Positions 1 to 46,495 of a stretch of 64,000 bases of DNA are shown in pieces. The number at the start of each line of letters is the position of its first letter. The first letter of the stretch is position 1. The stretch is from NCBI GenBank assembly GCA_944320495.1, contig CALUHR010000003.1:64001-128000 (forward strand), given 5' to 3'. The stretch is from Candidatus Methanomethylophilaceae archaeon. Lineage in GTDB: Archaea; Thermoplasmatota; Thermoplasmata; Methanomassiliicoccales; Methanomethylophilaceae. The translations under genes were made by a program, and so were the position numbers. The notes beneath the pieces were generated by a model. It was not told the origin of the DNA. It made no database searches and saw only the letters and a program-made list of their open reading frames with translations.

Positions 1-1
1 G

Positions 2-11216: not shown

Positions 11217-14200
11217 TCGGCGTCCGCTGCCTACCGCCTCCAATCCGCCTTCTAGATCCGGAAGGATCGTGATGGTCAGTCCCGTCCCGTCATGGAACAC
11301 TGTGAACTGCCCAGTTCCCGCCCCTTCCACTTTAAGAGTCTTGGAGTCCGCATCGTAGGATACCAGATGCGTATCGCTCCATGTGAACACATGGACCTGG
11401 AATCCGGGAACCCCGAGATCGACAACCACACCCTGCGCGAACTGCGACTGGGTGGCCGTCACGCTTATGACTTCGGGAACCCCCGCTTCGCCCGTGAGCC
11501 GCGGCATCGCATAGTATGTTATGGTCTGGGAATCACCAGCCTCGATGGAATCGACCACGGCATAGACGCCGTCGGACATCTCCATCCAGACCTGGGAGTC
11601 CCCCACAACCAGGACACTCGCATTGTCGCAGTGCGGTGCTTTCTTTTCCGAGATAATGGTCCATCTCTCACTGTCGAAGAGTGAACCGTCCAGAGAACGG
11701 TACTCTATGGTGTAGGCTATCAGGTCGAGATGCACCGTGCCCTCGAACCTGTCGGACGTCAGCGGGATGCTGATCGTTCCGGTCTCGAATCCTTCCAGAC
11801 CCACCGTGAGCTGGGTGCTGTTGTACGCATCCGTCGGCACCTGTGCGGTGAAGATCATACGAGCGTCGGAGATAGTGCCGTCGACAATCGTGACAGTCGA
11901 GGAGGATCCGAGGCTGAAGTCAAACCTTATCGACATCCCCGTGAGCCTGGATACCATCTCCTCATCCAGCTCGTTCTCGCTCTCATCGCGGAATACCACG
12001 ATGATTGACACCTCTGTGCTCTGGAGCGTCGCGATGAGCTCCACATCCACCGTTCCGAGGACAAGATACACCATTGAGGAACCTGTCATGGTTCCGGCAT
12101 CGGTGCCGACCTGGGAGGTGGACATGGTGTATGCATCCTCAGTGACAACGGTCAGGATGTACCCCTCGAAGAGAACATCCCCTTCTTGGGCTTCGACCGC
12201 TCCGCTCTCGTTTCCGGATACATCCACGGATGCGACATTCACTGATGATATCCCTTCCCCGATGTCCTTGAGCTCCACCTGCCGGTAGACGGAGAACGTT
12301 AGCTCCACATCCTCCTGGACATCGAGATTCAGTGTCACACTCACGGTCACCCTCCCGCCAATGCTCCCACTATCCGAATCAGTGAGCATCCTCTCGCCCA
12401 TCCACATCGCGTAGCGGTAGCCTGTGGGAAGACTGACTGAGATCGTGATCGATCCAGAGTCAACGACGGCACCCTTCGAATCAGGATTGTTGCCGGTAAA
12501 CGATATGCTTCCGAAACTCCCGAATGAGATCGTCGCTGAGCCATCGCCGAGACCGCTGGAAAGGCCATCGTCCCCGGTGTAACCTACGGTGACGGTGACC
12601 CCAGTCCTGAGATGGATCTCCAGCTCCAGGGTCCCCTCACCATCGTCACCGGCATTCGGCACTACAAACGCCATCTCCATCCCGGGGACCCCGCTGATGG
12701 CTACGCTGTTGTCTCCATAGGAACAGACAGCGGATGAGATCCTGTAGCCATCATCAGCGGTCACGACGACCCTGAGCCCGAACGCCACGCTCAGTGTGGC
12801 ATTCCAGGAACCCGAGCTCGGAGTCCAAGATATCTCCTCTGTGGACCAGAGCCCCTCGAACGAGAGCACTGAACTGGGGTCGCCACCCTCGACGATGACT
12901 TTCATTGTGTACTCGTTCGGCTCCCAAGGCACGTACAGTGTGGTGTCGGTGTACAGGACTGTATCGTCGAAAGAGAATTCGTCTGCATCCGTGAATCCCC
13001 CAACAGGTGCTGAGGAACTCAGGGTCCAGTACTTTCCTGCGAGATGATACCCGGGATATGCCGTGGCGGCCGTGCCGTCCCAGGGTATGACCAGTCCCTC
13101 CCCTTCATCTCCCGGTTCGCCGATGCCGTTGGCCTTCAGCGTGGTCCCGGGTCTGATGTAGACGCTGGTGGTCTCTAGATGGACGTACTGTCCGACGAAA
13201 GAGACCTTGATGCCGAACTTGGCGGTGAGGGTCAGTGACTCCTTGAGCTCGGACGTCATGTTGTACTTCAGAGTCTCGCTGACGTACCAGCCGTCGAGAC
13301 TTTTGAAATATGTGAAGATCGACCCATCTTTCAAGGTTTCGTCGGGGATTAGCGTCAGGAGCCATCCCATCATCTCCCCGATGGTCCCGGTGACCTGCTG
13401 ACCGTCCCTCATGTATGTAATGGTCTCGCTCTCGAGGATGCCTCCGAAGGGGATCTTGATGGATTCCGAGGGGGAATCTGACCATACGAAGGTGTAGATT
13501 CCAGTACTCTGATCCATGGTCACTTCGAGACCGTGTACTTCCCCGTCGATGTCCTTGTATTGAAGGGCCAGGTCCACGGGCTTGGCCTCTTGGAAATGAA
13601 CCGTGACACGATAGTTCACAGTCTCACTACCAGCGGTAGCAACCACGGTGAACACTGTGGACTGCATCTCGCCATCGCCGGAATAGAATATCCTCATTAC
13701 CGAGTCCTTGACACCGCCCTCTCCGAACTCCTTACCTTTGGCATCGGAACCGTTGAGGCCGTCGCTCATGTACTGCGATGCCACCCAGCCCTTGCTGGAC
13801 AGATACGTGGTGTCCGCGAACAGCGTCAGATCCCCGTCGACATCGCTCGTAATCGTGTAGGAGTGCCTGTTTCCGAGGGAGGGGAATAGGACATACCCGG
13901 TACCAGTGCAACGTCCGCCCGACACGGTGGTCATTATGGTGACAGACAGATCGATCGTTTCCGGTACGCTCCTGGGGAGGACGTTGAGCGTGACCTCGAC
14001 ATCGACGAAGTTCACGGGCAGATAGCTTACACTCCCGTTTAGCGTATACGGGATTACCTCCGCCAGGTGCAGAGTGATCACCCCTACGTTCCCCGTCGTC
14101 CCGAAGACGGTCGTTTGATTCATACCGAGATATGAGTTCGATATCAGGGAAGCATCGACGCGTATGGCGAAGTCGTTGGCATTTCCTACTTCTTCGTATG

Positions 14201-17200
14201 CCGAATCACCGCTGAAATAGTACCTCTGGAGCGAATCCCTGCCGGATCCGCTCACATATTCGTGGGTCTTTACGGCGACCTGCTTGGTATTATCCCCGGC
14301 ATCGGATCCGCTGATGGTCATGCTGAAGAAGTCCGAAACGCCAATATCATCAACCGGATTGAATCCGTCTGCCCTCACGTAGCTGTTGTAATCACCCTCT
14401 GTCAGGATATAGAACCCGTTCTGGACAGTGGGATTCGCATATGCCGCTGCGTACGCCAGCATAGAGCCGTTGGACATGTGCGGAAGGATCGCGGTGCCGG
14501 TGGCGCTCCAGTTCTGGGACCCGTCATCCGATGTCGTCCCGAAGTTCAGGACCATCCCCACGCTTACATGCCCCGAGATATACCAGGTCTTGGTCTGGCT
14601 GTTGCCGGTTCCATATATGTAGCTAGCAGGGGAAAGTCTCCCACTATCATCCCTGATGACAAAGCCTGACTCCTCGTCAGTGTACATTGATCCCACAGCA
14701 AAGGCTCCGTAATAGGTATCGCCGGCGGCCCTCGATATGATCGTGTATCCTTTGATGAGTCCTATCCCGTCATCTTTGTTATTCGGACCGATGTCGTCGG
14801 GACCGAGGATGTAGAGCATCCTCCCATCGCGCAGGACGATCTCGTTACCGGTCCCATCCTCATATCCTGTCGTATAGTCCCCGGACTGGGCCAGGTTTCC
14901 GTCGATGTAGCTCTCGTAGCTCTGGATGCCCGATGTCTGAGCCCTCAGATCCAAGACTGTCCCGCCGCCCAGGACGAGCTTCTTCGTGATGCTGTTGATG
15001 GAGACGCTGATGGAAAGGCCCGTGGACGTTCCGTCAGCTGATCCTTCCACGACGATACTGGCATTCTCTATCAGAAGCTCGTTAGCACGCTGGATGGACT
15101 GGATGAAATATTCGCAATCCTGATCGTAATCATGGATGCTGATGGTCGACGTGCCGCCTATCGCACTGTAGTTCCCCTGCCCGAAGATATCGCCGTAGAT
15201 GCTGATCTTCGGAACATCCGATACATCGCTGGGACCTGGCATCACATATCCTGCGAAACCGATGGATGGAACGGGACCGCCGGAAATCTCGATCGTAACA
15301 TCCCCCATCAGCAGCTCGCTGCCCTCCTGGAACGCGGCCTCGCCAGGGGAGTTGAGGTTACCTCCGCCGTAGATGCTGTTGATCCTGAGGTCGTATCCCG
15401 AAACACCGTTGTAGACGGTCAAATACGGAACCGCACCCTCGGCCTCGACGGCGCAAGAGCCCACGAGGATTGTGGCATCCATCAGGGAATGACCCATGAA
15501 GCCCCCTCCATAGACGCCCTGCATGACGACACCGGCCAGGAGACGGATGCTGACGCTACCGACGGCATTTTTGGATTGGTTGCCATCGTAGTCTTGGGGG
15601 GCATCGTGGCCGAGCCTGCTTCCCCCATAGACGCTACCGTTTATCGTAGCACCGTTGATGACCAGCGTCCTCTCGCCGTTCGACATTATGGACTTCGCAT
15701 CGGAGGCCTCGGGCTCATCATCCGGCACTACACCGTAGCCACCGCCGTAGACGTCGCCGTTGACTGTGGAGCCTCCTCCGATGCTGATGCACACCGATTC
15801 TGCTTCGGTGTACGCAGCCGCTCCTCCTCCGAACACCGCATACTGGGTGCTCGTCTCGCCGACATTCGATGCGAACACCGAGACGGAGATGCTATCCACA
15901 TCCACCTTTGCGATATCTGGTTGACCTGTGACCCCTTTACCTCCGCCGAAGATCGCCCCAAGAACTTTGGCTGGATTCGCGGTGGAACCAGTCACGATGA
16001 CGGAGATCGAGGGCCCGGAGACCAGACCGAGTGCCCCTCCCCCATAGACGGATTCTTCGACCGTGCCGCCGGAGATGGTGACGGACGTGCCACCGGTGAC
16101 CATCGCGACATCCTTGCTGGTGTCTCCATCGACTCCCATGCCTCCGCCGTAGACGGATTCTTCGACCGTGCCGCCGGAGATGGTGACGGACGTGCCGCCG
16201 AAGACAGAGGCCACATCTGATGTGCCCTTGCCGTTGTATACGACGCCTTCACCTCCTCCGTATATTGAACCCACGACAGTCCCATCTTGCATGATGATGC
16301 TCGTGGTCCCGTAGACATAGGCTTTTCCTGTAGGATCGTCTTTTGTTTCTGCATATTCAGCTTCACTGAGCGGATCTGCCCCTCCGCTACCGCCGCCGAA
16401 AACCGATCCTGTGATCTTTCCCCCGAGGATATTGACAGTGGTGGACCCCTGTTCGTCAGTATAGACGGTTCCCACGGTTCCTCTGAACCCTCCCCCATAT
16501 ACCGAGCCGTTCACAACCGCCGATTCCTTGATTGTCACATCAGTGTACCTGACTCCAGGCCCTTTCGTACTTGCAAAGGTGTCCCAACCACCTCCAAGCA
16601 CATCTCCCGGATATTCTGATGTCCCCACCTTTGCGGAGCCACCGATGACGACATTTGCCGTCACCACCGGGAACTCATCTGATGGGTTGCCGTCGGTCAC
16701 CGCGCCGCAGACCATGTACACGACGTACGAATCCCCGGCTACTGTGACGTTGGCAGTGTCCACGTGAGATGACTGGCCTGACCTCCCTCCACCCTGGACT
16801 GCGAACACCTTGGCTTTGCCGACGATATCGACATTGCTCGTAACGACTTCACCAAGACGAGAGCCGCCGACGACCGTCTGATAGACGGAGTTCGTAATCG
16901 AATGGATGTTCCCATCCCAGATGCTTCCTCCGGCGATGAGAACGTTGGTCTCCGACAGCTTCGACTTATTACTCTGGACCCCGTGCCCCCCATAGACGGA
17001 ATCCGTCACCGTCCCGCCGAGGATCTTCACGGATGTTGTGGCTTCAGCGGAGCTGGATCCGGATGAACCACCCATTATTGTCTGATAATTGCCACTGAAG
17101 ATGACTATGTCGGATGAAGTTCCACTGGAGGAGAGTCCGCTTACCTGCACACCTTTACTGGAATCTGAGATCCCCGTGCCCAGTATGACGGACTTACTGT

Positions 17201-18104
17201 TCCCACGGATACCTTCATCTTGATTTCCGTGAGCGTTTGCAGATGCTTCCTTTCCGTCAATACGGACATTATCGATGATACAATCCGCTTGGATGTCCCA
17301 GGTGGAGTTAAAATTCAGAGTCTTTAGAGAACCATTCTTGCTGTCGCTGTCTGAGACGTAGCTCCTGATCGTGACGGTCTTGTTTATCGTGCTTACGGCG
17401 ATGTTCCGACTCTCATTATCATCGAAATACAGAAGGATGATGCTGCGATATTTTGCCTGGGGACCATCAACAATTGATATTCCTTCATTCCACCACCCAT
17501 CAAAGACACTATCTTCACAACCATTCAGCGCATAGTCCAATGTCGTCGGTTCAGACCGCGTTCCATCGTCTCTTTCCCGATGGACCAGCGAACTATTTCC
17601 GTTATCATCGTCATCATGCCCATCAACATAGCGGACATCGTAAAGTGTGTCCCACTGAGCTGTGAGTGTCAGAGTCTTATTATTCCAAAGCCCAGCATAC
17701 TCTGATGATAGGAGATCCGTTCCCGGATCGACGACATAGTCAGTTCCCGAGACCTTCCATCCGACGAACACAATCGTCTGTTTTTTCACATAGTCTTCTA
17801 TGATATACCAATCTTCCACGGTATTCGCATAACCGGCTCCCGTGACGACGGTCGCATGCTCATCTATGCTACTAGAATAACCAGAAGAGGCCGTACTCCA
17901 GAACTGCGGGTTGTATTCGGCCACAGCATAGCCGTCGTACTTCACCTTCACATTCTGATAGCCTGTGCTGTCCGGGTCACTGTTGTTCCCTGTAGGCAGG
18001 CCTTTTACTGTGCCCGGCTCATACACGACATAGTAGTCATCATCGGTGAAGTCCGTATCATCCGGATCTGCCGAATACAGGACGGTGATGCACGATAGCA
18101 GCAT
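11217..18104 (-). CDS. ~2300-aa adhesin-like protein with VYGGG/VFGGG Gly-rich repeats and one Flg_new-like repeat; start uncertain; proposed end at CGA 11219-11217 (standard stop at 11190)
   Basis: ORF 11190..18104. Repeated (T)V.GSVYGGG motifs suggest a beta-helix. The hydrophobic signal helix begins upstream of the first ATG. Confidence 0.8.
16045..16196. repeat. Exact 47-bp direct repeat (16045-16091 and 16150-16196) inside the adhesin
   Basis: tagacggattcttcgaccgtgccgccggagatggtgacggacgtgcc occurs twice, 105 bp apart, encoding GTSVTISGGTVEESVY. Confidence 0.9.
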
Positions 18105-18316
18105 GAGGGCTACAGCTAGGATCGCGAAGGCTCTGACAGAGTGCTTATGACTTCCTCCACTCGTCCTCGCAAACAGGGAAATCCCCTCCCTCCCCCCCCA
18201 GCGAAAGCCGGGAACGACCCATAGTGCATGTCTGAATCGCCATTGGATGCTCCTTCATACCTGGTCTAGGAAACATATTCTGTGGAACATGTTCATAGCT
18301 TGATTTTCCACTCCAC

Positions 18317-18331
18317 TATATTATAATATTT
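18317..18331 (-). promoter_or_regulatory. Putative TATA box of the adhesin operon
   Basis: AT-only stretch tatattataatattt upstream of the minus-strand operon. Confidence 0.45.
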
Positions 18332-18780
18332 ACGCTATTGTGTACTATGGAGAATACAAATTGTACCAAATGTACGGAACGAAGTGAAATTAAAACGCCG
18401 TTAAGTCCGAGTTCGGTGTTAACTCGAGATTTCGACGAAACTGCATAATGCATGGTCTGAGAACCGAATATCCTATTCCTTAACGCGAAAAACCAGGGCG
18501 GAAACGGCCGCTTTTCTTCCGAAACCCCCGTTCCGATGCGGAGATCCCCCAATGTTCCGACCCCTTAGTAACACCCGGATCGCCCGATCCGCCGCGGACG
18601 CTGGCCTTCATCCGCAATCCTACCATCGGGTGCGTTGGTTATGTCAATCCGCAAAACATACAATTTATTCCATTCATAGTTTCACATTTCATACGTATTT
18701 TTCATACGAATAATAAGTATTAACAACGTGAGATTTCCATAAAAAACTAGTTATTTAACCTCAGATTAACATTCATCATT

Positions 18781-22819: not shown

Positions 22820-22900
22820 ATCGGACACCGTCCGGAATCATCCCATAACGAAGTGTGGACAGAGGCTCGACTGACCTCTAATGGGCCTGCCTATTCGCTT

Positions 22901-32748: not shown

Positions 32749-34211
32749 CTCGACCTCTCTGACCTGATCCGCTCGAGCAGCTCGGCGGCGTCCGGGTCGC
32801 CCTGGCGGGCGGCCAGGCCGAGCAGCTTCTTCGCACGGGGGATGTTCCTCTTGACGATCTCCCCCTCGTAGTAGATCTTGCCCAGGTAGTACTGGGCCTC
32901 GTAGTATCCGGCGTCGGCGACCTCGTTGAGGATCTCCAGCCCGCCCTCGACATCCTTCTCCACGCCGGACCCGGTTATCTTCATCATGGCGAACATGGAC
33001 TTGGCGCCGGGGTGACTCTGGTCGGCCGCCTGATCCAGCCACATCGCCGCCTTCTCCGGGTCGCGCTCGCATCCGCGGCCCTCGTAGTACATGCATCCGA
33101 GGCAGTACTGGGAGTTGGGCTCGCTGCCCTCCGCCGCGTTACTGAACCATTTGAAGGACTCCTCGTCGTCCCTCTCGAAGTAGTATCCGGAGCCGTACAT
33201 GCATCCGAGGGCGTACTGCGCGTATCCGTTGCACATGTTCGCCGCCTCGGTGAACCATTTCGCGGCCTTGGCGAGGTCCTTGGGCAGTACCTGCCCCTCG
33301 AATGACATGTTGGCGAGGTCCACCATGGCCTGCTGGTAACCGTTCTCGCAGGACTTCTCCAGCCAGTAGAGCGCCCTGGACGGGTCCCTCTGGACGCCCT
33401 GCCCGTAGGCGAGCATCATGCCCAGCTGGTACTGGGCCTCGTCATGGCCCTGCTCGGCGGCCTTCTCGAACATCTCGGCCGCCTTCTGGTCGCTGGTCCA
33501 CCTGGTCTTGGGTATCGAGTGGATGCAGCCCATGGCGAACTGGGCGTCCCTGTCGCCGGCAGCGGCGGCCTTCTCGTACCACTGGACCGCGGTCTTCAGG
33601 TCGGGGTCGGCATCGCCGGTTCCCTCGTCGTACATCTGACCGAGACGGTACATGGCGTTGGCGTCGCCGTTGTCGGCGGCCGCCTTCAGCCATCTCACGG
33701 CCAGCTGGGGGTTCTTCGGGATCCCCTTCCCCTTGAGATGCATGAACCCGATGACGCGCTGCGCCACCGGGTCGTCGTTCTCGGCGCAGACGGTGTAGAA
33801 CCTGACGGCCTCCGCATGGCTCTTCCTGACGCATTCGGAGCCGTTGTCGTACAGCTCGAAGAGCCTCGCGCAGGCGGCGGTGTCCCTCTCCTCGCCCCTG
33901 AGCCTGAGTGCCATAATCCTCCTCTGGACGTCGGGCTCGTTGCGCTTCAGCTCGGCGGAGACGATCGACGCGGGCATGTGGCCCTCGGCCTCCGCCAGGG
34001 AGAACATCTCGGCCGCCGTGGCGGGGTCCGCGATGGCTCCGCCCTCGCCGAGGTAGAGGAATAGGCCGTGGAGGTAGCGGGCGTCCGGGTTGCCCTCCGA
34101 CGCACCCTGCTCCGCCAGGGCCTCGGCCCTCTTGGGATCGAAATCCGGGGATGCGCAGTCCATGTACCTGCGGGAGGGTTCGTACAGCCACTCGCTTCCA
34201 TTCTGCTCCAT
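32745..34211 (-). CDS. Sel1-repeat protein (~490 aa; start 34211 or 34223)
   Basis: About 10 Sel1 repeats. It has its own TATA box at 34235-34241. This is the 3' part of composite ORF 32745..35459. Confidence 0.88.
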   Translation of the reverse strand: MEQNGSEWLYEPSRRYMDCASPDFDPKRAEALAEQGASEGNPDARYLHGLFLYLGEGGAIADPATAAEMFSLAEAEGHMPASIVSAELKRNEPDVQRRIMALRLRGEERDTAACARLFELYDNGSECVRKSHAEAVRFYTVCAENDDPVAQRVIGFMHLKGKGIPKNPQLAVRWLKAAADNGDANAMYRLGQMYDEGTGDADPDLKTAVQWYEKAAAAGDRDAQFAMGCIHSIPKTRWTSDQKAAEMFEKAAEQGHDEAQYQLGMMLAYGQGVQRDPSRALYWLEKSCENGYQQAMVDLANMSFEGQVLPKDLAKAAKWFTEAANMCNGYAQYALGCMYGSGYYFERDDEESFKWFSNAAEGSEPNSQYCLGCMYYEGRGCERDPEKAAMWLDQAADQSHPGAKSMFAMMKITGSGVEKDVEGGLEILNEVADAGYYEAQYYLGKIYYEGEIVKRNIPRAKKLLGLAARQGDPDAAELLERIRSERSR

Positions 34212-34233
34212 AAACGCCCCCATGCGCGCGCCC

Positions 34234-34242
34234 CTTATAAAG
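34234..34242 (-). promoter_or_regulatory. TATA box (CTTTATAAG) of the Sel1 gene, located just downstream of the pdxT CGA
   Basis: TTTATAA about 12-25 nt upstream of the candidate ATGs. Confidence 0.55.
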
Positions 34243-34253
34243 GCAGTCCGGCC

Positions 34254-34814
34254 TCGGATCAGGTCCAGGAAGTACCTGTGGACCGTGGCGTCCCCGGTGA
34301 GCTCCAGGTGGAACGCCGTGGCGATCTGCCTGCCGTTGCGCACCGCGACCGGGATCCCGTCGAGGGAGCACAGCGCCTCGGTGCCCTCCCCCAGAGAGAC
34401 GACCGAGGGGGCGCGGATGAACCTGAGGGGCACCTCTCCGAGACCGGCGAAGTCCGCACTGGAGCTGAAGCTCCCGAGCTGCCTCCCGTAAGCGTTGCGC
34501 CTCACCGTCATGGGCAGGGTGCCGAGGCAGGGCTCCCCTCCCTCGACCCGGGAGGCCAGCAGGATCATCCCCGCGCAGGTCCCCAGCACGGGCATGCCGC
34601 CGGAGACCGTCCCACGGATGCGGTCGGTCATGCCCATGTCCCCGAGGAGTTTTGCCATGACCGTGCTCTCGCCCCCCGGGATCACGAGGGCGTCCGGGTT
34701 CCTGTCGAGGTCGGAGGGCTTGCGGATCTCGAAGCATTCGGCACCCAGGTCCGAAAGCACCCTCTCGTGCTCTGCGAATGCCCCCTGGACGGCGAGAACG
34801 CCTATGCGGCTCAT
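34254..34814 (-). CDS. pdxT: Pyridoxal 5'-phosphate synthase glutaminase subunit; proposed end at CGA 34256-34254 (186 aa)
   Basis: [49 protein letters not shown] overlap with pdxS. Confidence 0.92.
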
Positions 34815-35707: not shown

Positions 35708-35889
35708 CGTTGCGTCTCCTGTCCGGATAGACCCCGATGCCTATAATGGCGAACTATTTACACTTTTGTCTATTTTACATCAGCCATATACATTTATAAT
35801 CACCCTCATCTCTGCCGATTCTTTATCGACGGAACGCATCCTGATCCGCACGGGAACGGCATTCGCCGGCCCCGACTGGAGTGTTCAGA

Positions 35890-36324
35890 ATGGCGGATGA
35901 CGACATCAACGACAGGGCGTACGAAACGCTGAGGGAGACCTTCGGATCGAAGGGATGGGAATACGAAACGGTCCCGGAGAACCGCGGGATCATGTCGTCC
36001 TTCCAGGGGAACGACCTAGTGATAGGCTTCCACGCGTTCGTGAGCGACGGGATGATCCGCATGGCGGCGATCCTTTCCTTCAAGGTCCCCGCCGAGAGGA
36101 TGCGCGACTTCGTCTGGGGCCTGAACGCCATCAACTCCGACCTCCCCTTCGGGAGCTTCGCCATGAATCCCGCCGACGGATACGTGACGTTCGACTACGC
36201 CCTCGTGTACAGGCGCTCCGTCCCCCCGGCCGATCTCATGGCCGATGTGGTGGTCACTATGATCAACACGGCCGACAGGTTCGACGGCAGCCTCAAGGGG
36301 CTATCCGAGGGACGGAACGAGCGA
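35890..36324 (+). CDS. YbjN-like (sensory transduction regulator family) protein; proposed end at CGA 36322-36324 (144 aa)
   Basis: Pattern of short beta strands followed by LNAINSDLPFGSFAMNP.DG.V. The standard-code ORF runs 296 aa antisense into the MFS gene. Confidence 0.65.
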
Positions 36325-36327
36325 TCG

Positions 36328-37650: not shown

Positions 37651-37714
37651 GCCACCCCGTGCCGGTCATCGTATAAAACCATACCCCGGGGGACACCCCG
37701 TGATCCTATGCCGG

Positions 37715-39121
37715 TTATCCCTTCCCGGGGACGTCCCTGCGCCTGCGGTCCCTCACGAGGACGGCGGCGATCAATCCGATCGCGGCGAGCAGCACACCGC
37801 CCCATAGCATGGCGAATCCCATCCCGTCCATGAACGCCTCCGGGGTGAGGTTCTCGATCGAGACCCCGGCGGAACCGCTACCGATAGTCAGCAGCGATGC
37901 GAACAGCGCCGTCCCGACGGTCCCGCCCATATAGTTCATGAAGTTCATCATGGAGGATCCGATGGCCTTGGACCCCTCCGGTATGTTGTCCACCACGCGT
38001 CCGGTGCACGCCGACCCGCTGAATCCCCACACTATGCCCATCGTCAGGGATGCCACGACCAGCGGGAGGAGGCCCATCTCCGGCTCCATCAGGAAGAACA
38101 TGACGTTGTACACCAGCGTGAAGAAAGACGCGGCTATGGCGCAGGACCTGCGGCCCCTGTGGTCGGTGTAGTTGCCGACAGGGATGCTCATTATGATCAC
38201 GAGGACCGAGGGCAGCAGGAGGATGAACCCGCTCATGACGGAGCTGAGGCCCAGCTCTATGTCCATGTAGAACGGCAGCACATAGAGCACGCCCATGTAC
38301 ACCAGGTTCAGGAGCAGGTATGCGATCAGAGCCAGGTCCATGTCCCTGAGCCTGAACAGACTGAGGTCGAACAGCGGACGTGAGGCGTGGGTGCTCTCCC
38401 TGACGTATCCCACGAGGAACAGCACGGCCACGACACCGGCTATGGCGGCGATCCACATCTCGTCGGGGTCGGAGATCGACTCCACGGCGATGACCATCGC
38501 CGCGACTGTGACGAACAGCAGGAACGATCCGCGCACGTCCAGCGCCCCCTTGGAGACCTCCTCCCTCGGCAGGGAGGCCCTCCCCAGGAGTATGCATGCG
38601 ATGCCCAGCGGGATGTTGATCAGGAAGATCCAGTGCCACGAGAGGTACTGCACGAGCACACCTCCCAGCGCCGGACCCAGCGCGAAGCCTGTGGACGACG
38701 CGATCGCCATTATCCCGAGGGACCTGCCGAGATGCTCCCTCGGCAGGAGCTTCACGCAGATCATCGGGGCCACCGCCACGATCGCTGCCGCCCCCACGCC
38801 CTGGAATATCCTCGACACGACGAGGAGCGAGAGCGAGGTGGACATGGCGCAGAACACGGAGAACAGCGTGAACACGGCGAACCCCGTGATGAACACGACC
38901 CTTATCCTCCCGGCGTCGGCGATCCTGCCGAAGGGAATGATGAGGCCGGCCATCATCAGGGAGTATGCGATGGACACCCACGACACGGAGCTCGTGTCCG
39001 TGTGGAAGTCGGCCGCGATGGTCGGCAGGGCGACGTTCACTATGCTCGCATCGATGTTGTCCATGAGGACACCGAGAACCATCGTCAGAATCAGCAGACC
39101 CACGGTACCCTTCGCAGACAT
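37715..39121 (-). CDS. DHA2 (EmrB/QacA) family MFS efflux transporter
   Basis: DASIVNVALPTIA, GRIADAGR, RIFQGVGAA, GPALGG...WHWIFLINIPLG. Confidence 0.9.
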   Translation of the reverse strand: MSAKGTVGLLILTMVLGVLMDNIDASIVNVALPTIAADFHTDTSSVSWVSIAYSLMMAGLIIPFGRIADAGRIRVVFITGFAVFTLFSVFCAMSTSLSLLVVSRIFQGVGAAAIVAVAPMICVKLLPREHLGRSLGIMAIASSTGFALGPALGGVLVQYLSWHWIFLINIPLGIACILLGRASLPREEVSKGALDVRGSFLLFVTVAAMVIAVESISDPDEMWIAAIAGVVAVLFLVGYVRESTHASRPLFDLSLFRLRDMDLALIAYLLLNLVYMGVLYVLPFYMDIELGLSSVMSGFILLLPSVLVIIMSIPVGNYTDHRGRRSCAIAASFFTLVYNVMFFLMEPEMGLLPLVVASLTMGIVWGFSGSACTGRVVDNIPEGSKAIGSSMMNFMNYMGGTVGTALFASLLTIGSGSAGVSIENLTPEAFMDGMGFAMLWGGVLLAAIGLIAAVLVRDRRRRDVPGKG

Positions 39122-39219
39122 GCCAGACTAATCTGGATGTCCTTTGAAAAACCCTTCTGGCCAGCGGTTTCGGGGGAGTCTGAGACTGTATTATAAATGA
39201 CAATGCGATTCCCACCCGC

Positions 39220-39903
39220 ATGGCAGGTGTGGACAGGAGCATGGACCCGATGGAATGGGCCAAATTCGTCATCCGCAACAGGGACGAGAGGAACTACGTC
39301 GAGGCCTACTCCATCTTCATCCGCGAGTCCAAGACGGACAATCCGGAGGCGGAGTACTGCCTCGGACTCATGTACGCCCGCGGACAGGGGATCTCCAAGG
39401 ATCACGCCGCCGCCCTCAACTGGTTCCTGAAGGCGTACGACCACGGATACACCCGCTCAGGCTACTTCATCGGCAGGATGTACCTGTCTGGCCTGGGGAC
39501 CGAGAAGGACGTCCAGAAGGCCATCAGATACCTGGAGTCCGTCTCGAAGGAGGACGCCCGGGCCATGTACGAGCTCGGCCTGATCCACTTCGAGGACCGC
39601 GACGTGCCCCGCGACCTCCACAAGTCCGCCGAATGGATGCTCAGGGCGGCCAACGCGGGCAACGCGGAGGCCCAGTTCGTCCTGGGACAGTTCTACAAGG
39701 CCGGTGCCGGATTCCAGAAGGACATCGACAAGGCGGTCCACTGGCTCACATCAGCGGCGCTGAACAGGCACAAGGGCGCCCAGATCCTCCTCGGTAACAT
39801 GTACCGCACAGGGGACGGCGTCAAGGTGGACCTGGACGAGTCCGACCGCTGGTACGACATGGCCGACGGCATCAGCAACGTCCAGCCAGACGAGAAGAGT
39901 CGA
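39220..39903 (+). CDS. Sel1-repeat protein; proposed end at CGA 39901-39903 (TAA at 39957)
   Basis: Five Sel1 repeats (AEYCLGLMYARGQG, AQFVLGQFY and others). Confidence 0.85.
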
Positions 39904-39983
39904 ACTGACACCACCGGCCCCCAGGACCGGCGATCAGACCGATTATTGAGAATGTAAGGCCGGGGTCTCCCCCGGCGTTTTGA

Positions 39984-41654
39984 TCACTTGAGTCCGACGA
40001 TCCTGCCGTCCTCGAGGAGGTCCATCCTCATGGCGGCGGGGACCTTCGGGAGACCGGGCATGAGGGTCAGGGTTCCGCAGACGGGGACGATGAACCCTGC
40101 TCCGGCGGAGAGTGTGACCTCCCTGACGCTGAGGGTCCATCCCCTCGGGGCCCCCTTGACCTTGGAGTCGTCCGTCAGGGACGCCTGGGTCTTGGCGATG
40201 CACACCGGGAGGTTCCCGTATCCGTCGGCCTCCATCTGGGCGATGGCCTTGTCGGCCTCCTTGGAATAGACCACGGATCCGGCGCCGTAGATGTTGGTGG
40301 CGACGGCCTCGATCTTGTCCTTGATCGGGGAGTCGGTCTGGTACAGGAAGTGGAAGTCGGGCTTCACGGTGTCCAGGACGTCGAGGACGGTGTTGGCCAG
40401 CTCGACGGCCCCCTCGCCTCCCTTGGAGAAGGCCTCGGAGAACGCGCACCTGACGCCGATCTCCCTGCAGTGGTCCATGATGATGTTCATCTGCTCGGGG
40501 GTGTCGTGCTGGAACCTGTTGACGGCCACGACGACGGGGACGCCGTAGGAGGACATGTTCTCGATGTGCTTGTCCAGGTTGCAGAGGCCGAACCTCAGGG
40601 CGTCGTCCGTCAGGGTGGACTCGTCCTCGAGCCTGGCGCCGCCGTGGGTCATGAGGGCGCGGATGGATGCGACGAGGACGACGCAGTCGGGCCTCATTCC
40701 GGACTCCCTGCAGACGATGTCCATGAACTTCTCCCCTCCGAGGTCGGAGGCGAAACCCGCCTCGGTGATGACATAGTCACCGAGGGAGAGCGCGGCCTTG
40801 GTGGCGATGACGCTGTTGGTGCCGTGGGCGATGTTGGCGAACGGGAAGCCGTGGACGAACACGGGCTGCCCCTCGAGGGTCTGGACGAGGTTGGGGTTGA
40901 TGGCGTCCTTGAGGAGTACCATCATGGCGCCGACGCATCCCAGATCCTTCACGGTGACGGGCTTGTTGTCGTAGGTGTATGCGACGACCATCCTCTCGAG
41001 CCTCCTGCGGAGGTCGGCCCTGTCGTTGGAGAGGGCGAGGATGGCGGAGATCTCGGAGGCGGATGTGATGAGGAAACCCGCCTCGTGGGGCACACCTCCG
41101 AGGATCCTGTCCCTTCCGAGCCCGGTGACGATGTTCCTCAGCTCGCGGGCGTTGATGTCCATGGCCTTCTTGAGGACGACGCGGGTGGGGTCGATGTTGT
41201 GGACGTTGTCCCTCACGAGCTCGTTGTCCACGATGGCGGACAGGAGGTTGTGCGCCGCGGTGACCGCGTGGATGTCACCGGTGAAGTGGAGATCGATGTC
41301 CCACATGGGGTAGACCTGGGAGTAGCCGCCTCCGGTGGCGCCTCCCTTGATTCCGAAGGTGGGTCCGATGGAGGGCTCCCTGAGGGCTCCGACGACCTTC
41401 TTCCCGAGTCTGCCAAGACCCTGGATGAGTCCGATGGTGGTGACGGTCTTCCCCTCGCCGGCGGGCGTGGGGGTGATGGCGGAGACCATCACGAGCTTAC
41501 CCTTCTTGTCGCCCATCTTGGCGAGCCTGTCGTAGGGGATCTTCGCGATGTACTTGCCGTAGGGCTCGATGTCATCCTCGGTGAGTCCTATGGTCGCTGC
41601 GACCTCCTTGATCGGCTTGACTTTCGCATTCTGGGCGATCTCGATGTCATCCAT
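39984..41654 (-). CDS. fhs: Formate-tetrahydrofolate ligase
   Basis: AITPTPAGEGKTVT, IKGGATGGGYSQ, HFTGDIHA, PFANIAHG, TEAGF, MPGLP. Confidence 0.96.
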   Translation of the reverse strand: MDDIEIAQNAKVKPIKEVAATIGLTEDDIEPYGKYIAKIPYDRLAKMGDKKGKLVMVSAITPTPAGEGKTVTTIGLIQGLGRLGKKVVGALREPSIGPTFGIKGGATGGGYSQVYPMWDIDLHFTGDIHAVTAAHNLLSAIVDNELVRDNVHNIDPTRVVLKKAMDINARELRNIVTGLGRDRILGGVPHEAGFLITSASEISAILALSNDRADLRRRLERMVVAYTYDNKPVTVKDLGCVGAMMVLLKDAINPNLVQTLEGQPVFVHGFPFANIAHGTNSVIATKAALSLGDYVITEAGFASDLGGEKFMDIVCRESGMRPDCVVLVASIRALMTHGGARLEDESTLTDDALRFGLCNLDKHIENMSSYGVPVVVAVNRFQHDTPEQMNIIMDHCREIGVRCAFSEAFSKGGEGAVELANTVLDVLDTVKPDFHFLYQTDSPIKDKIEAVATNIYGAGSVVYSKEADKAIAQMEADGYGNLPVCIAKTQASLTDDSKVKGAPRGWTLSVREVTLSAGAGFIVPVCGTLTLMPGLPKVPAAMRMDLLEDGRIVGLK

Positions 41655-41844
41655 GAGCAGATGTTACCAGTTCGCCCACTTAAAGGTTGACGCCGGTTAA
41701 AAATCCGGGACGCCGTAGGACGCCGCGGGATGCATGCCGTTCCCCGGGATCGTCCAGCATCCGACGGGTGCTCCCAGGTCTTTTAAAATAAGCGAAATTT
41801 GTTTAATCATACCATATATAATTTTAATCATTCCATTCATTTTT

Positions 41845-41885
41845 TTAGGAATTACTAACTATTAAATACATTTAGGATATCCGAA
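41845..41885 (+). promoter_or_regulatory. Two DtxR/IdeR-like boxes upstream of feoA
   Basis: TTAGG-AATT-ACTAA (41845-41858) and TTAGG-ATAT-CCGAA (41872-41885), both near-palindromes of TTAGG-N4-CCTAA. Confidence 0.5.
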
Positions 41886-41890
41886 CAGAC

Positions 41891-42196
41891 ATGAATCCAG
41901 CATCACCTTGTGTGACCGCCACTGCAGCGCCATGCAGCGAACAGAAGCTCGGGTGCTCCATGGGCGTCCCTGGTGTCCCGATTTCCATGATGAGGGTCGG
42001 GGAGGTCGGGACCGTCGTCAGCATCTCCGGCAAGGAGGACGTGAGGAGGTTCCTGAACGAGCTCGGGTTCACACCGGGCACGGAAGTCAGGGCCGTGAGC
42101 CAGGCCGGAGGCAACATCATCCTCGAGGTCAAGGACTCGAAGATTGCCATCGACCGCCACATGGCCAACAGGATTCTGTTCTGCCCCGCGAGATGA
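41891..42196 (+). CDS. feoA: Ferrous iron transport protein A (true start may be later)
   Basis: RRFLNELGFTPGTEV...GNIILEVKDSKIAIDR. Confidence 0.85.
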   Translation: MNPASPCVTATAAPCSEQKLGCSMGVPGVPISMMRVGEVGTVVSISGKEDVRRFLNELGFTPGTEVRAVSQAGGNIILEVKDSKIAIDRHMANRILFCPAR

Positions 42197-42200
42197 TAGC

Positions 42201-42422
42201 ATGAAGACACTGAGAGACGCCGATGTCGGCTCCACCGTCACCGTGGTGAGGCTGCACGGCGAGGGCGCTCTCAAGAGGCACATCATGGACATGGGCATCA
42301 CCAAAGGATGCCAGATCTATGTGCGCAAGGTCGCCCCGCTCGGGGATCCCGTGGAGATCACCGTGCGCGGCTACGAGCTGAGCCTCAGGAAGAGCGACGC
42401 GGAGAGCATCGAGATCGCCTGA
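42201..42422 (+). CDS. feoA: Ferrous iron transport protein A (second copy)
   Basis: KRHIMDMGITKG...APLGDPVEITVRGYELSLRK. Confidence 0.92.
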   Translation: MKTLRDADVGSTVTVVRLHGEGALKRHIMDMGITKGCQIYVRKVAPLGDPVEITVRGYELSLRKSDAESIEIA

Positions 42423-42472
42423 CGATCCTCTGGCCCCGTCCCCCATGCGCGGGCCGTTCTGGAGTGAGAACA

Positions 42473-44683
42473 ATGAGTCTTACAATTGCTTTGGCCGGAA
42501 ATCCAAACAGCGGGAAGACCACCCTCTTCAACAAGCTGACGGGTGCTAACCAGCGCGTGGGGAACTGGCCGGGGGTAACCATCGACAAGAAGACCGGGAA
42601 GGTCCGCGGCCACGACATCGAGGTCGTCGACCTGCCCGGGATCTACTCGCTGTCGCCGTACTCCCCGGAGGAGCTGGTGTCCAGGAACTACCTTCTCAAG
42701 GAGACCCCGGACGCCATCATCAACATCGTGGATGCGACCAACCTCGAGAGGAACCTCTTCCTCACGCTTCAGATCCTCGACCTGGGAATCCCCACGGTCG
42801 TCGCCCTGAACATGATGGACCAGGTGGAGAAGCTCGGGGACAGGGTCGACGTCGGGAAGCTGTCCAAGGAGCTGGGATGCCCGGTAGTGCCGATATCGGC
42901 CATCAAGAACCAGGGCATCCAGGACCTGATCGAAAGGATAGAGAAGGCCGGCGGATCCGGGGAGGTCCCGGAACCCGTCCTCTTCGACGGGGACATGGAG
43001 GGCCTCATCGCCGAGGCCAGAGATGCCCTCGGGTCCAAGGTCCCTGCGGACCGCTCCCGCTTCTACGCCGTCAAGCTGGTCGAGAACGACCACCAGATCT
43101 GCACCGAGTTCGCATCCGAGAAGGAGTCCATCGCCGCCTCGGTATCCGAGGTCGAGAGGAAGAGGGACGACGAGATCGACTCGATCGTCGCCGACTCCCG
43201 CTACAACCGCATCTCGGACATCGTCGGGGACTGCGTCAAGAGGGCACCCCGCGACGAGAGGGGCACGCTCTCAGACAGGATCGACAGGGTCGTCACCAGC
43301 AGGATCTGGGGAATCCCGATCTTCCTCGGAGTTCTCGCCGTCGTGTTCCTCGGCATCATCGGGTTCGCCTGGGGCGACTTCGAGGTCGTAGGAATCGGGA
43401 CATGGTGCACGGACTGGCTCAACGGGTTCATCGAGGACCCCATCCAGTCCACCGTGGCCGACTGGTGCGCCGACAACGGCGTCAGCGACGCCATGACGGG
43501 CCTGCTCGTCGACGGCATCATCGGAGGAGTGGGGGCCGTCATCGGATTCCTGCCCCAGATGCTCATCCTATTCCTCGCCCTGTGCATACTCGAGGACATC
43601 GGGTACATGTCGAGGATCGCCTTCGTCATGGACCGCGTGTTCAGGCACTTCGGGCTCTCCGGCAAGTCCCTCATCCCCGTCCTCGTGGGAACCGGATGCG
43701 GCGTCCCCGGGATCATGGCCTCCCGCACCATCGAGAGCGAGAGGGACCGCAGGATCACCGCGATGACCACCACGTTCATCCCCTGCGGAGCCAAGCTGCC
43801 CGTCATCGCCATGCTGACCTCCGCCGTCTTCGGCGGCAACGGACTCGTCGCCGTCGGATGCTACGTCATGGGGATAATCTGCATCCTCATCTCCGGAATC
43901 ATCCTCAAGAAGTTCAGGAGCCTCTCCGGAGCCGCGACCCCGTTCATCATGGAGCTGCCCCCCTACCACATCCCGTCCGCCTCCAACATCGTCAAGGGGA
44001 CCCTCGACAGGGGCTGGGCGTTCGTGAAGAAGGCCGGTACCATCATCCTGCTCGCGTGCATCCTGATCTGGTTCCTCTCCAACTTCACCTGGGGCCTGGA
44101 GTTCAACGGCGGAGAGACCGGGAACTCCATCCTGGCGTCCATCGGAGAGGTGCTCATGTACGTCTTCATGCCCCTCGGCTGGGGCGACAACTGGGAGCTC
44201 ACCGTGGGATCCATCACCGGGCTCATCGCCAAGGAGAACATCGTCGGAACGTTCGGCACCCTGTTCGGCGTCGAGGCGGGAGAGAACGGCGAGGGTCTCG
44301 AGGCCGTCCTCGGGTCCATGCTGTCCACCGCCTCCGGCTGGTCGTTCCTCGCCTTCAACCTGATCTGCGCCCCGTGCTTCGCCGCCATCGGAGCCATGCA
44401 CAGGGAGCTCGGGTCCTGGAAGGACACGGGCATCGCCGTCGCCTACCAGTGCATCCTGGCGTACTGCGTCGGGCTGGTCCTCTACGGCATCCTCGGATGC
44501 GTCGGAGGATGGAACACCGTCGTGATCGACGGCGTGACCGTGGACAACGGCGTGCCGATCGGAAGCACCATCGCCGCCATCGTCGTGATAGCCGCGTTCG
44601 TCTACATCCTGTGGGCCAAGGACCCGTTCCGCCAGCTCGCCGGCAGGGACGAGTACGACGCGGAGGACGAGGTGAAGGCATGA
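42473..44683 (+). CDS. feoB: Ferrous iron transport protein B
   Basis: GNPNSGKT, VGNWPGVT, DLPGIYS, NMMD, and a membrane domain with GCGVP and PFIMELP. Confidence 0.96.
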   Translation: MSLTIALAGNPNSGKTTLFNKLTGANQRVGNWPGVTIDKKTGKVRGHDIEVVDLPGIYSLSPYSPEELVSRNYLLKETPDAIINIVDATNLERNLFLTLQILDLGIPTVVALNMMDQVEKLGDRVDVGKLSKELGCPVVPISAIKNQGIQDLIERIEKAGGSGEVPEPVLFDGDMEGLIAEARDALGSKVPADRSRFYAVKLVENDHQICTEFASEKESIAASVSEVERKRDDEIDSIVADSRYNRISDIVGDCVKRAPRDERGTLSDRIDRVVTSRIWGIPIFLGVLAVVFLGIIGFAWGDFEVVGIGTWCTDWLNGFIEDPIQSTVADWCADNGVSDAMTGLLVDGIIGGVGAVIGFLPQMLILFLALCILEDIGYMSRIAFVMDRVFRHFGLSGKSLIPVLVGTGCGVPGIMASRTIESERDRRITAMTTTFIPCGAKLPVIAMLTSAVFGGNGLVAVGCYVMGIICILISGIILKKFRSLSGAATPFIMELPPYHIPSASNIVKGTLDRGWAFVKKAGTIILLACILIWFLSNFTWGLEFNGGETGNSILASIGEVLMYVFMPLGWGDNWELTVGSITGLIAKENIVGTFGTLFGVEAGENGEGLEAVLGSMLSTASGWSFLAFNLICAPCFAAIGAMHRELGSWKDTGIAVAYQCILAYCVGLVLYGILGCVGGWNTVVIDGVTVDNGVPIGSTIAAIVVIAAFVYILWAKDPFRQLAGRDEYDAEDEVKA

Positions 44684-44856
44684 ACGGGAACCTCGTCGTC
44701 GGAGCGATCGTCATAGCGGTCGTCGCGGCCTCCCTGGCATACCTGGTATGGCAGAGAAGGAGGGGCAGATGCAGCTGCGGCATGGACTGCAGCTGCAGGA
44801 AGCCCGCCGGCAAGGACGACGGGGAGACCTGCGACTGCTGCAGGAAGGACCGATGA
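44680..44856 (+). CDS. FeoB-associated Cys-rich membrane peptide; ends CGA-TGA
   Basis: TM helix followed by RRRG-CSCGMDCSC...CDCC. ATGA overlap with feoB. Confidence 0.75.
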   Translation: MNGNLVVGAIVIAVVAASLAYLVWQRRRGRCSCGMDCSCRKPAGKDDGETCDCCRKDR

Positions 44857-44936
44857 CCGCAGGGGGCCCAGGCCCCCGAACAAACGGCCCGGCCGGGTGC
44901 CGGGCCATCAACCCAATACATCGCGAGGTCGGAGAA

Positions 44937-45128
44937 ATGGACATGAACATCGTCGTGGGCGGCGTGATCGCACTGATCGTAATAGCCGACGTGGCCTATC
45001 TCATCAGGAAGAGGCGCAGGGGCGAGAACTGCTGCGGCTGCACCGGATGCTCCGGCCGCGGATGCGGATCCTGCCACGGCCCATCGCTCGTCATGGTCGA
45101 AACGGAAGGGCCCGACAAGGATAACCGA
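44937..45128 (+). CDS. Second FeoB-associated Cys-rich membrane peptide; proposed end at CGA 45126-45128
   Basis: TM helix followed by [24 protein letters not shown]. Confidence 0.7.
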
Positions 45129-45187
45129 TGTACGGAACGAAGCTTCCGACCGCATGTTTTATTATAAAGACCCAGGATGCTGACGAC

Positions 45188-45322
45188 ATGAAATACCGTT
45201 GCCCCCTGTGCGGGTACATCTACGACGAGGAGAAGGAGGGCGTCAAGTTCGCCGACCTCCCCGACGACTGGTGCTGCCCCGTCTGCGGAGAGCCCAAAGA
45301 GGAATTCGTCCCGATGGAATGA
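45188..45322 (+). CDS. Rubredoxin
   Basis: [11 protein letters not shown]...[18 protein letters not shown] box at 45157-45168. Confidence 0.92.
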
Positions 45323-45325
45323 TCC

Positions 45326-46252
45326 TCAGGTCCCGTCGATGCGGATGAGCTGCGAGTTCTGACGGCGGCGGATGTCCTGCACGAGCTGCAGGGCTATCTG
45401 ACTGCCCGCCGCGGCCGCCCTCGACAGGAGTTCGAAACCCTTTACCTCATCCTTATCCGTGCCCAGCCCCTCGAACATCATCCTACCGACCATGAACATG
45501 GCGTCTGGATCCTCGTCCATGATGGACTGGTACATACCGAACGCCGCCGACAGGTCCCTGGTCACACCCTCGCCCTGGTAGAGCATGGTGGCCAGCCTCA
45601 TCCTGGCCGGCACGAAGCCCGCGTCCGCCGCCGACCTGCACCAGTTGTACGCGGCGGCCTTCCCGCCATCCGCCTTCCCGGACGAGCACAGCTCGGACAT
45701 CTTCAGCATGGCCTCCGGCACTCCCGACGCCGCTGACATCCTGAACATGCGGATCGCCTCGGCATCGTCCCTCTCGCATCCTATCCCCTCGGACAGCATG
45801 TACCCGGCCTTGAACATCGAGAGGGAGTCCCCGGCGTCCGCCGCCCTGCGGTACCAGCCGAGCGCCCCTGTCGGATCCGCATCCGTCCCGTATCCGTACA
45901 GGAGGATCCCGGCGATCTCAGGATACGCGGGAGGGAACCCGGCATCCGCAGCCCTCCGGAACCAGTCCGCTGCACGCGAAGGGTCCTCCGGATGCTCCAT
46001 GGCGCCTGCCCACAGCATACCCAGCCTGTACATCGACGGAGGGTGTCCCGCATCGGCCGCGACCTCGTAGAGCCTCTCGGCGCCCTCGGGGTCCCTCTCC
46101 GTGCCCCTGCCGGACATCTTCATCTCGGCCATGCCGAAGACCCCGTTCGGATGCCCCGCGGACGCGGCCTCCTGGAACATCCCGTATGCGGACTCGGGGT
46201 CCTCTCCGACCATCTCCGCGGCGCGTGCGCAAAGCTCCTCCGGATCGCTCAT
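45326..46252 (-). CDS. Sel1-repeat protein
   Basis: Repeated AM..LG.M...G.G...D...A..W...AA..G. Confidence 0.88.
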   Translation of the reverse strand: MSDPEELCARAAEMVGEDPESAYGMFQEAASAGHPNGVFGMAEMKMSGRGTERDPEGAERLYEVAADAGHPPSMYRLGMLWAGAMEHPEDPSRAADWFRRAADAGFPPAYPEIAGILLYGYGTDADPTGALGWYRRAADAGDSLSMFKAGYMLSEGIGCERDDAEAIRMFRMSAASGVPEAMLKMSELCSSGKADGGKAAAYNWCRSAADAGFVPARMRLATMLYQGEGVTRDLSAAFGMYQSIMDEDPDAMFMVGRMMFEGLGTDKDEVKGFELLSRAAAAGSQIALQLVQDIRRRQNSQLIRIDGT

Positions 46253-46306
46253 GGCCGAGCCAGTGCCGTGCATCTTATTTTTAATTTGTAGGCCGGTTCA
46301 CGGGTC

Positions 46307-46495
46307 ATGATCAAAGGCCCGCTGGTGTATGCAGCAGTCGCCCTGGCATTCATCCTCATCGCGATGTCGTTCGTCATCGCCGCCTTCCCCGATATGATCG
46401 AGACCCTCGGCATCATAACCGCGGTGGTGGCCGTCCTCGTCGTCATAGTCCTCGTCGGCATCCTGATCAAGACCAGGAGGGGTTCCGGCGAGCGA
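46307..46495 (+). CDS. Small two-TM membrane protein; proposed end at CGA 46493-46495
   Basis: Two hydrophobic helices, then KTRRGSGE. The standard-code ORF runs on 175 aa over the ArsR gene. Confidence 0.55.

Follow-up and report, generated by a model that had tools for sequence, protein, structure and literature searches.

Can an arginine codon end genes in a cellular genome? The question is raised by a stretch of archaeal DNA of 64,000 nucleotides, hereafter called the window (positions 64,001 to 128,000 of contig CALUHR010000003.1; G000:C3:64001-128000), which comes from the assembly GCA_944320495.1 of a Candidatus Methanomethylophilaceae archaeon, here G000 (1.77 Mb in 14 contigs, 61% guanine + cytosine (GC)). 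An original prediction, made from the letters of the window, held that CGA behaves there as a stop codon and that TAG has been given over to pyrrolysine. The genus in question is Methanoprimaticola-like and belongs to the family Methanomethylophilaceae; the public records nearest to G000 by similarity of the release factor aRF1 are those of an uncultured Methanomassiliicoccales metagenome-assembled genome (MAG) (100%) and Candidatus Methanoprimaticola sp. MG2 (91%), and more distant matches are labelled Methanomethylophilaceae, Methanogranum, Methanoplasma and Methanomethylophilus. The evidence discussed throughout is DNA sequence and its comparison, and from it we consider it very likely, with a probability of about 0.85 to 0.9, that CGA terminates translation in this genus beside TGA and TAA. 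Taken as a whole, the observations are in all probability best explained by CGA as a terminator together with TGA and TAA, TAG as a sense codon for pyrrolysine as in Genetic Code 34, and a contest at CGA between aRF1 and a weak tRNA-Arg(UCG).

CGA at the ends of genes

Coding potential was followed with a frame score, that is, self-trained log-odds of codon usage from long open reading frames (ORFs) rich in GC at the third codon position, in which CGA and the three stop codons were set to zero so that they had no influence on the result. When CGA was added as an extra stop, the window yielded 41 confident genes with 18,558 codons, including 996 arginine codons. These consist of 572 AGG, 308 CGC, 46 AGA, 45 CGT and 25 CGG, without a single CGA; the predominance of AGG and CGC, the lack of CGA inside genes and the CGG at the arginine of Cdc6 YVNCR are all as originally described. 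Off frame, CGA occurs about 34 times per 1000 codons, so its lack in frame is far beyond chance. The last codons of the same genes are TGA in 32, CGA in 8 and TAA in 1.

The original prediction named 11 CGAs as gene ends (Table 1), and every one of them is present in the frame and on the strand given. Seven are informative singly; the other four, namely those of the adhesin-like ORF, the CGA-TGA tandem and the two short peptides, are individually weak, the adhesin-like ORF having a low coding score in its last 40 codons and an ambiguous end. When CGA is read as arginine by translation table 11, the overlaps of hundreds of codons that had been foretold do appear: the frame extends past CGA by 331 codons in Cdc6, 372 in the NIF3-like protein, 502 in PdxT and 148 in YbjN, and the products, for example a Cdc6 of 717 amino acids (aa) and a NIF3-like protein of 693 aa, continue after the expected end with arginine-rich nonsense or with the next gene. 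The arginine-rich tail of Cdc6 runs out of frame over ncsA, the tail of the NIF3-like gene overlies cdc6, and pdxT becomes fused in frame with the next Sel1-repeat gene into a product of 689 aa (window 32745-34814, minus strand). The tail of the membrane peptide ORF at 46307-46495 has 13 further CGAs and overlaps the next gene out of frame. Read as a stop, CGA gives family-typical lengths, as had been claimed, the profiles of PdxT, Cdc6, NcsA, HAD and YbjN ending at the codon. NF047749 aligns residues 5-302 of NcsA to profile positions 2-318 of 322, CGA being codon 311; TIGR03800 aligns residues 3-184 of PdxT to positions 1-184 of 184, CGA being codon 187; and in the YbjN-family gene CGA is codon 148.

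Table 1. CGA codons at gene or ORF ends, and an in-frame TAG, in window coordinates
Feature	Position	Strand	Remark
CGA at end of giant adhesin-like ORF (11217-18104)	11217-11219	-	next standard stop 8 codons on
CGA terminator, tRNA 2-thiolation gene ncsA (23454-24386)	23454-23456	-	NCBIfam NF047749
CGA terminator, orc1/cdc6 (24367-25524)	24367-24369	-	NF001623 aligned to profile position 403 of 411
CGA terminator, NIF3-like gene (25526-26488)	25526-25528	-	one base ahead of cdc6 ATG
CGA terminator, HAD-family phosphatase gene (29030-29686)	29030-29032	-	HxpB profile aligned to 216 of 222; CGA is codon 219
CGA terminator, pdxT (34254-34814)	34254-34256	-	TIGR03800
CGA terminator, YbjN-family gene (35881-36324)	36322-36324	+	PF10722 aligned to 121 of 126 at residue 135
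CGA terminator, Sel1-repeat gene (39220-39903)	39901-39903	+	most orthologues with TGA 0-2 codons from this position
CGA-TGA tandem at end of small ORF after feoB	44851-44856	+	uninformative alone; standard stop directly adjoining
CGA at end of 63-codon Cys-rich membrane peptide ORF (44937-45128)	45126-45128	+	score changes from +8 to -20 across the codon
CGA at end of 62-codon membrane peptide ORF (46307-46495)	46493-46495	+	score +30 before, -18.5 after
In-frame TAG in ORF of over 2,200 codons, open at window start (1-5578)	668-670	+	score 19.7 before, 24.2 after

The same behaviour was found over the whole genome in a test that makes no assumption of CGA being a stop, in which in-frame codons following 40 codons of strong coding signal were scored for whether the signal continues. 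It continues after 5 of 572 CGAs (0.9%), compared with 34 of 1176 TGAs (2.9%), 6 of 118 TAAs, 31 of 249 TAGs and 30-80% of sense codons. Coding signal on both sides is present at only 5 sites for CGA, which upholds genome-wide the claimed lack of internal CGA, and at 350 for CGG, 729 for CGT and 764 for AGA. Of 1417 confident ORFs, 1041 have TGA as their end, 313 CGA, 40 TAA and 23 TAG, and CGA is the last codon of about 22% of genes. Downstream of the end codon the score averages -15.0 for CGA, -16.0 for TGA and -14.5 for TAA, and +11.0 for TAG. In addition, the next standard stop after a terminal CGA lies at a median distance of 28 codons and at most 735 codons away; this spacing resembles that after TGA, so that CGA is not simply the last arginine before a nearby stop. 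Selection for backup stops after CGA was not seen, beyond a mild excess of CGA-TGA tandems (18/278, compared with 28/924 for TGA).

Terminal CGA also has a context of its own, contrary to the original statement that the flanking bases share no motif. U stands at +4 in 62% of cases, compared with 29% after terminal TGA and 23% after all genomic CGA, C or G stands at +5 in 88%, and U stands at -1 in 6%. Moreover, CGA ends are scarce in genes of high codon adaptation (7 CGA and 116 TGA in the top decile, 200 and 394 in the bottom half; Mann-Whitney p ~4e-21), and this avoidance by the best-adapted genes fits a weaker or leakier terminator.

Gene ends in related genomes and family history

The C-termini of window genes were aligned to about 50 orthologous loci from about 30 species. 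Across about 30 species of the genus, the orthologous genes for the NIF3-like protein, Cdc6, PdxT and NcsA exchange CGA, TGA and TAA at one and the same end position, which is the outcome of the comparison of sister genomes proposed at the outset. The codon after the last aligned residue of 13 NIF3-like orthologues is TGA in 9, CGA in 3 and TAA in 1, the CGA of G000 not being counted, and the conserved start of cdc6 comes next in each. At the end of cdc6, orthologues carry GTG-CGA-CCT or GTG-TGA-CCT at the same place; those of pdxT have TGA or CGA at the identical codon, those of ncsA have their TGA, TAA or CGA no more than a few codons away, and most orthologues of the Sel1-repeat gene at 39220-39903 carry TGA 0-2 codons from the CGA position. 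Genes closed by TGA in G000 have CGA as their last codon in some relatives, and samples of 20 kb from 11 other species of the genus again have CGA at frame ends. In other families of the order, high-GC members carry CGA inside genes, aligned to arginine.

The read-through products of the window are already on record in public protein collections. A NIF3-like protein of 693 or 703 aa with an out-of-frame Cdc6 tail occurs in 27 members of a 90% cluster, and the PdxT-Sel1 "fusion" of 689 aa in 30 members of another; the assemblies behind them (NCBI, ENA, Logan) come from different projects and assemblers. Consequently, the C is reproducible and the public gene calls by table 11 are wrong, and the original argument that a base-calling artefact is not involved is borne out by the recurrence of these read-through ORFs in 27-30 independent assemblies. 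It might still be supposed that CGA is plain arginine and the tails and fusions are real, or that C is an assembly or base-calling error for T. A tRNA-Arg(UCG) gene does exist, and public gene calls hold the long forms, as plain arginine would have it, but the coding statistics stop at CGA, the tails cross neighbouring genes out of frame for hundreds of codons and the family profiles end at the codon. As for error, the same pattern would have to recur in about 30 species and in all those assemblies, and an error model is unable to remove CGA from gene interiors. Both forms of this explanation are already contradicted and retain a negligible probability.

The exchange of codons among orthologues bears on another explanation, in which the DNA has CGA and the mRNA is edited C-to-U, so that the ribosome meets UGA as in plant organelles. 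CGA and TGA differ only at the base that would be edited and swap freely, the downstream preference for U and then C or G could be the context of an editing enzyme, and the creation of UGA stops from CGA is documented in plant mitochondria. However, editing is site-specific, so that ordinary CGA arginine codons should stay common, whereas in-frame CGA is virtually absent in every context. Editing would also leave unexplained both the degenerate tRNA-Arg(UCG) of the genus and the one CGA at an essential arginine of the release-factor gene, which are described below, and we know of no description of mRNA C-to-U editing in archaea. It is therefore regarded as improbable, and termination at CGA itself remains the preferred reading.

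Other genera of the family suggest how such a terminator may have arisen. As samples of 20 kb around aRF1 contained too few CGA-ended genes to score the trait there, samples of 100-120 kb were used. A complete Methanomethylophilus-like genome (G092; loci L213 and L227-L231) has CGA at 0 of 446 aligned arginine codons; five CGAs lie at gene ends or close to them, with a standard stop 0-8 codons behind each. This pattern possibly represents the same change at an early stage, in the organism in which Code 34 was validated. Two further genera have CGA at 0 of 377 and 0 of 552 aligned arginine codons, and a Methanoplasma-like genome (G048) uses CGA as arginine (6/443, plus 12 clear internal cases). 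From these comparisons the family history is likely to have been one of codon capture: the coding sequences of several genera in the family would first have lost CGA, after which the tRNA-Arg(UCG) would have been weakened and CGA would have returned in the GC-rich genus through TGA-to-CGA changes at gene ends.

Possible decoding of CGA by tRNA-Arg(UCG) and aRF1

Loss of tRNA-Arg(UCG) had been proposed as a cause of the change, but the gene was not lost. It is present in G000 (G000:C13:413317-413390, outside the window) and in no fewer than 13 further species of the genus; where ARAGORN was run with introns allowed, its many implausible intron-containing calls were ignored. Among 12 species of the genus, four pairs of the anticodon stem show compensatory changes, which indicate that the tRNA is under structural selection. 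All 12, nevertheless, have a mismatch at 31-39 (A-A, C-A or U-C), which leaves an anticodon stem of 4 bp. Position 33 of tRNAs is near-universally U; in tRNA-Arg(UCG) it is C in two complete genomes from a lower-GC branch of the genus. In three sister genera this tRNA has U33 and a normal stem of five pairs. Judging from sequence, these changes of the anticodon arm would weaken decoding by the tRNA.

The clearest internal CGA in the genome stands in the gene for aRF1 (~C2:85903-87135), at G000:C2:86932-86934 on the minus strand, outside the window. It is the sole CGA of the gene and encodes, as codon 78, the conserved arginine of the RLK segment after NIKS. All 36 distinct aRF1 sequences from the genus encode this arginine by CGA, and none of them has a second CGA. 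The context of the codon is fixed as NCT-CGA-CTN, while the adjacent codons for alanine, leucine, lysine and threonine vary freely and arginine codon 99 is variously CGC, AGG or CGT. At codon 78, outgroup families have CGC, CGG, CGT, AGG or AGA. With U before and C and U after the codon, this context is the reverse of the consensus at terminators. The frame runs uninterrupted through the CGA, with no +1 frameshift site, so read-through of CGA as arginine is needed for full-length aRF1. Synonymous variation is normal from codon 79 on, and because of this there is no sign of RNA structure, nor of an extended conserved element, downstream of the codon. Furthermore, those other genera of the family that have no CGA in the sampled coding regions mostly keep one in aRF1, conserved within the genus at codon 11, 25 or 50; the exceptions are a single genome of g10, whose aRF1 has no CGA, and g17, whose sole CGA is at codon 327. 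By analogy with RF2, the aRF1 CGA looks like a device for self-regulation and may serve as a feedback sensor of release activity.

A second conserved case is the junction of gmhA and gmhB, which are joined in one frame by a CGA (G000:C13:194143-194145, minus strand, outside the window), gmhB being without a start codon in most species. Of 30 loci from the genus, 24 carry CGA at the junction, 3 TAG and 1 AGA; the remaining 2 have TAA, with gmhB in another frame behind a TTG or GTG start of its own. Partial read-through of CGA is the simplest explanation here, which would make the junction a candidate site of programmed read-through. Since the conserved in-frame CGAs in aRF1 and gmhA-gmhB must be read through, CGA is not an absolute stop.

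After inspection, the internal CGAs that remain in the genome are these two, one in a strain-specific gene and one in a flavodoxin paralogue. The strain-specific gene encodes a membrane protein (CGA at G000:C5:178733-178735) and, as none of 40 other genomes of the genus has a counterpart, its internal CGA carries little information. The flavodoxin-like paralogue has its in-frame CGA at G000:C8:55685-55687, where relatives have AGG or AGA; this may be a fresh nonsense-like change or a tolerated read-through.

Given that CGA terminates, its recognition by aRF1 has, on sequence grounds, slightly better than even odds. Indirect signs of a release route at CGA are the U bias at +4, the conserved CGA of the aRF1 gene and a family-wide R-to-M change after NIKS, which is rare among 137 representative sequences. 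The release factor would most likely outcompete a deliberately weak tRNA-Arg(UCG) at CGA, U at +4 probably strengthening the signal, and the weak tRNA would still allow low-level read-through. The cell appears to exploit such read-through at Arg78 of aRF1, as a feedback sensor comparable to the in-frame UGA of bacterial prfB, and again at gmhA-CGA-gmhB. The full proposal, in which CGA would be a third stop read by aRF1 in balance with an attenuated tRNA-Arg(UCG) and would serve as the terminator of about 300 genes, as the sensor in aRF1 and as the read-through codon of gmhA-gmhB, is to our mind an even bet.

Several points weigh against termination at CGA by aRF1. A tRNA able to read CGA is kept, its weakness being deduced from its sequence, and, as 38% of terminal CGAs are not followed by U at +4, read-through tails may be made to some extent. 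The relaxed aRF1 that had been suggested finds no support in its motifs, as NIKS and YxCxxxF are intact and no genus-specific change occurs in NIKS, YxCxxxF or GTS. The only genus-specific fixed substitutions in aRF1 are A17D and S142C, both outside the known codon-contact motifs. At the fourth residue after NIKS (the equivalent of human R68), where 127 of 137 representative aRF1/eRF1 sequences have R or K and 3 have M, the whole family has Met or Leu (loci L127-L226); the R-to-M change at this position is found also in a genus that uses CGA as arginine. Finally, all stop codons known to us to be read by class-I release factors begin with U. Candidate genus-specific changes at Q56, A59 and the M68 equivalent of aRF1 were rejected, being family-wide or present also in Halobacterium aRF1.

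A rival explanation is that CGA is effectively unassigned, that is, that a slow, crippled tRNA makes the ribosome stall and that rescue (aPelota/ABCE1 and peptidyl-tRNA hydrolase), not reading by aRF1, ends translation. The anticodon-arm defects of tRNA-Arg(UCG) are genus-specific and the decoding motifs of aRF1 are not changed in the genus; highly adapted genes avoid CGA ends, as they would a slow or costly finish, and sister genera had already emptied their genes of CGA. On this explanation, however, about 22% of genes, including cdc6, pdxT and ncsA, would need a rescue pathway, while the strong bias at +4 and +5 is typical of stop signals read by a factor, and the sole conserved CGA, lying as it does in the gene for the release factor itself, is easier to reconcile with a sensor of aRF1 activity than with a hungry codon of a generic kind. 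Stalling thus appears rather unlikely, and recognition by aRF1 is preferred. From the recoding originally predicted, what stands is that CGA acts as a terminator, by frame statistics, profile ends and swaps among orthologues; the loss of the tRNA does not.

TAG, significance and comparison with known systems

As originally observed, no confident gene of the window ends in TAG, and one TAG (668-670, Table 1) is internal, the ORF remaining open for 1635 more codons after it; this is a candidate pyrrolysine codon outside methyltransferases. Genome-wide, 23 confident ORFs are broken by TAG with coding signal after it (mean +11), and TAG makes up 3 of 1239 clear gene ends. The coding signal persists after TAG, and TAG therefore behaves as a sense codon. 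The genome encodes PylS, above the curated cut-off (G000:C9:67854-68522), and a tRNA-like gene with a CUA anticodon loop within about 2.5 kb of pylS, in agreement with the claim that TAG is given over to pyrrolysine.

Full-text literature searches did not turn up any account of CGA serving as a stop in this clade, and "CGA stop codon" otherwise meant C-to-U editing in plant mitochondria. To our knowledge, the accepted alternative codes of cells turn stop codons into sense codons or sense codons into other sense codons, and a change from sense to terminator is known only from mitochondria. If true, the present case would therefore be the first in which a free-living organism, a gut methanogen and with it a whole genus, has turned a sense codon into a stop, and CGA would be the first stop codon of a cellular genome that does not start with U. 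It would affect about one fifth of the genes of a common genus of gut methanogens, would challenge the U-first rule of class-I release factors and would provide a natural example of codon capture with intermediate stages alive in sister genera. In practice, standard gene callers mis-annotate hundreds of genes per genome in this genus, as with the false fusion of PdxT and Sel1, arginine-rich tails and suppressed neighbouring genes, and such mis-annotations are already in public protein collections. The matter also touches biotechnology, as the PylRS/tRNA-Pyl pairs in wide use for genetic code expansion come from this family.

The nearest system is Genetic Code 34, described by Kivenson et al. 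(bioRxiv 10.1101/2024.09.30.615893), in which all TAG codons mean pyrrolysine and which was validated by proteomics in Methanomethylophilus alvi. It belongs to the same archaeal family, and G000 likewise has pylS, tRNA-Pyl and TAG inside genes and almost never at their ends. Code 34, however, has two stops, TGA and TAA (bioRxiv 10.1101/2024.09.30.615893), whereas here CGA would be a third terminator; text searches of that paper did not find CGA mentioned.

CGA and CGG are the most change-prone codons of prokaryotes according to Codetta (eLife 2021, PMC8629427) and KACI (bioRxiv 10.64898/2026.04.02.715157). The KACI preprint (bioRxiv 10.64898/2026.04.02.715157) contains two archaeal MAGs from hydrothermal vents without CGA in known domains and without tRNA(UCG), and its author remarks, as an aside, that CGA might be a stop in these vent MAGs, whose lineage has CGG as Trp. 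The Codetta and KACI cases are sense-to-sense changes (Trp, Gln, Met, Ala), mostly in low-GC genomes, whereas the present genome has 61% GC, CGG is still arginine, the tRNA is retained and use as a stop was shown via orthologues.

The bacterial gene prfB for RF2 resembles the aRF1 gene in that a release-factor gene has, early in frame, one clade-conserved copy of the codon that terminates other genes. It differs in that prfB is served by a +1 frameshift with a Shine-Dalgarno-like stimulator, whereas in aRF1 the in-frame CGA would be read through as arginine. Plant mitochondrial editing also has a genomic CGA at the position of a stop, but it is site-specific and other CGAs stay arginine, while here CGA has been purged from all gene interiors.

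Sense-to-stop codes are found in organelles (NCBI tables 2, 22 and 23), namely AGA/AGG in vertebrate mitochondria, TCA in Scenedesmus and TTA in the mitochondria of Thraustochytrium. As in these codes, a sense codon has gone from gene interiors and stands at gene ends, and as in table 2 it is an arginine codon. The organelle codes, however, serve a handful of genes in tiny genomes, whereas here about 300 genes of a cellular genome of 1.8 Mb are concerned; the codon is CGA, the gene for the cognate tRNA is kept, and the codon itself is also kept for what appears to be regulated read-through.

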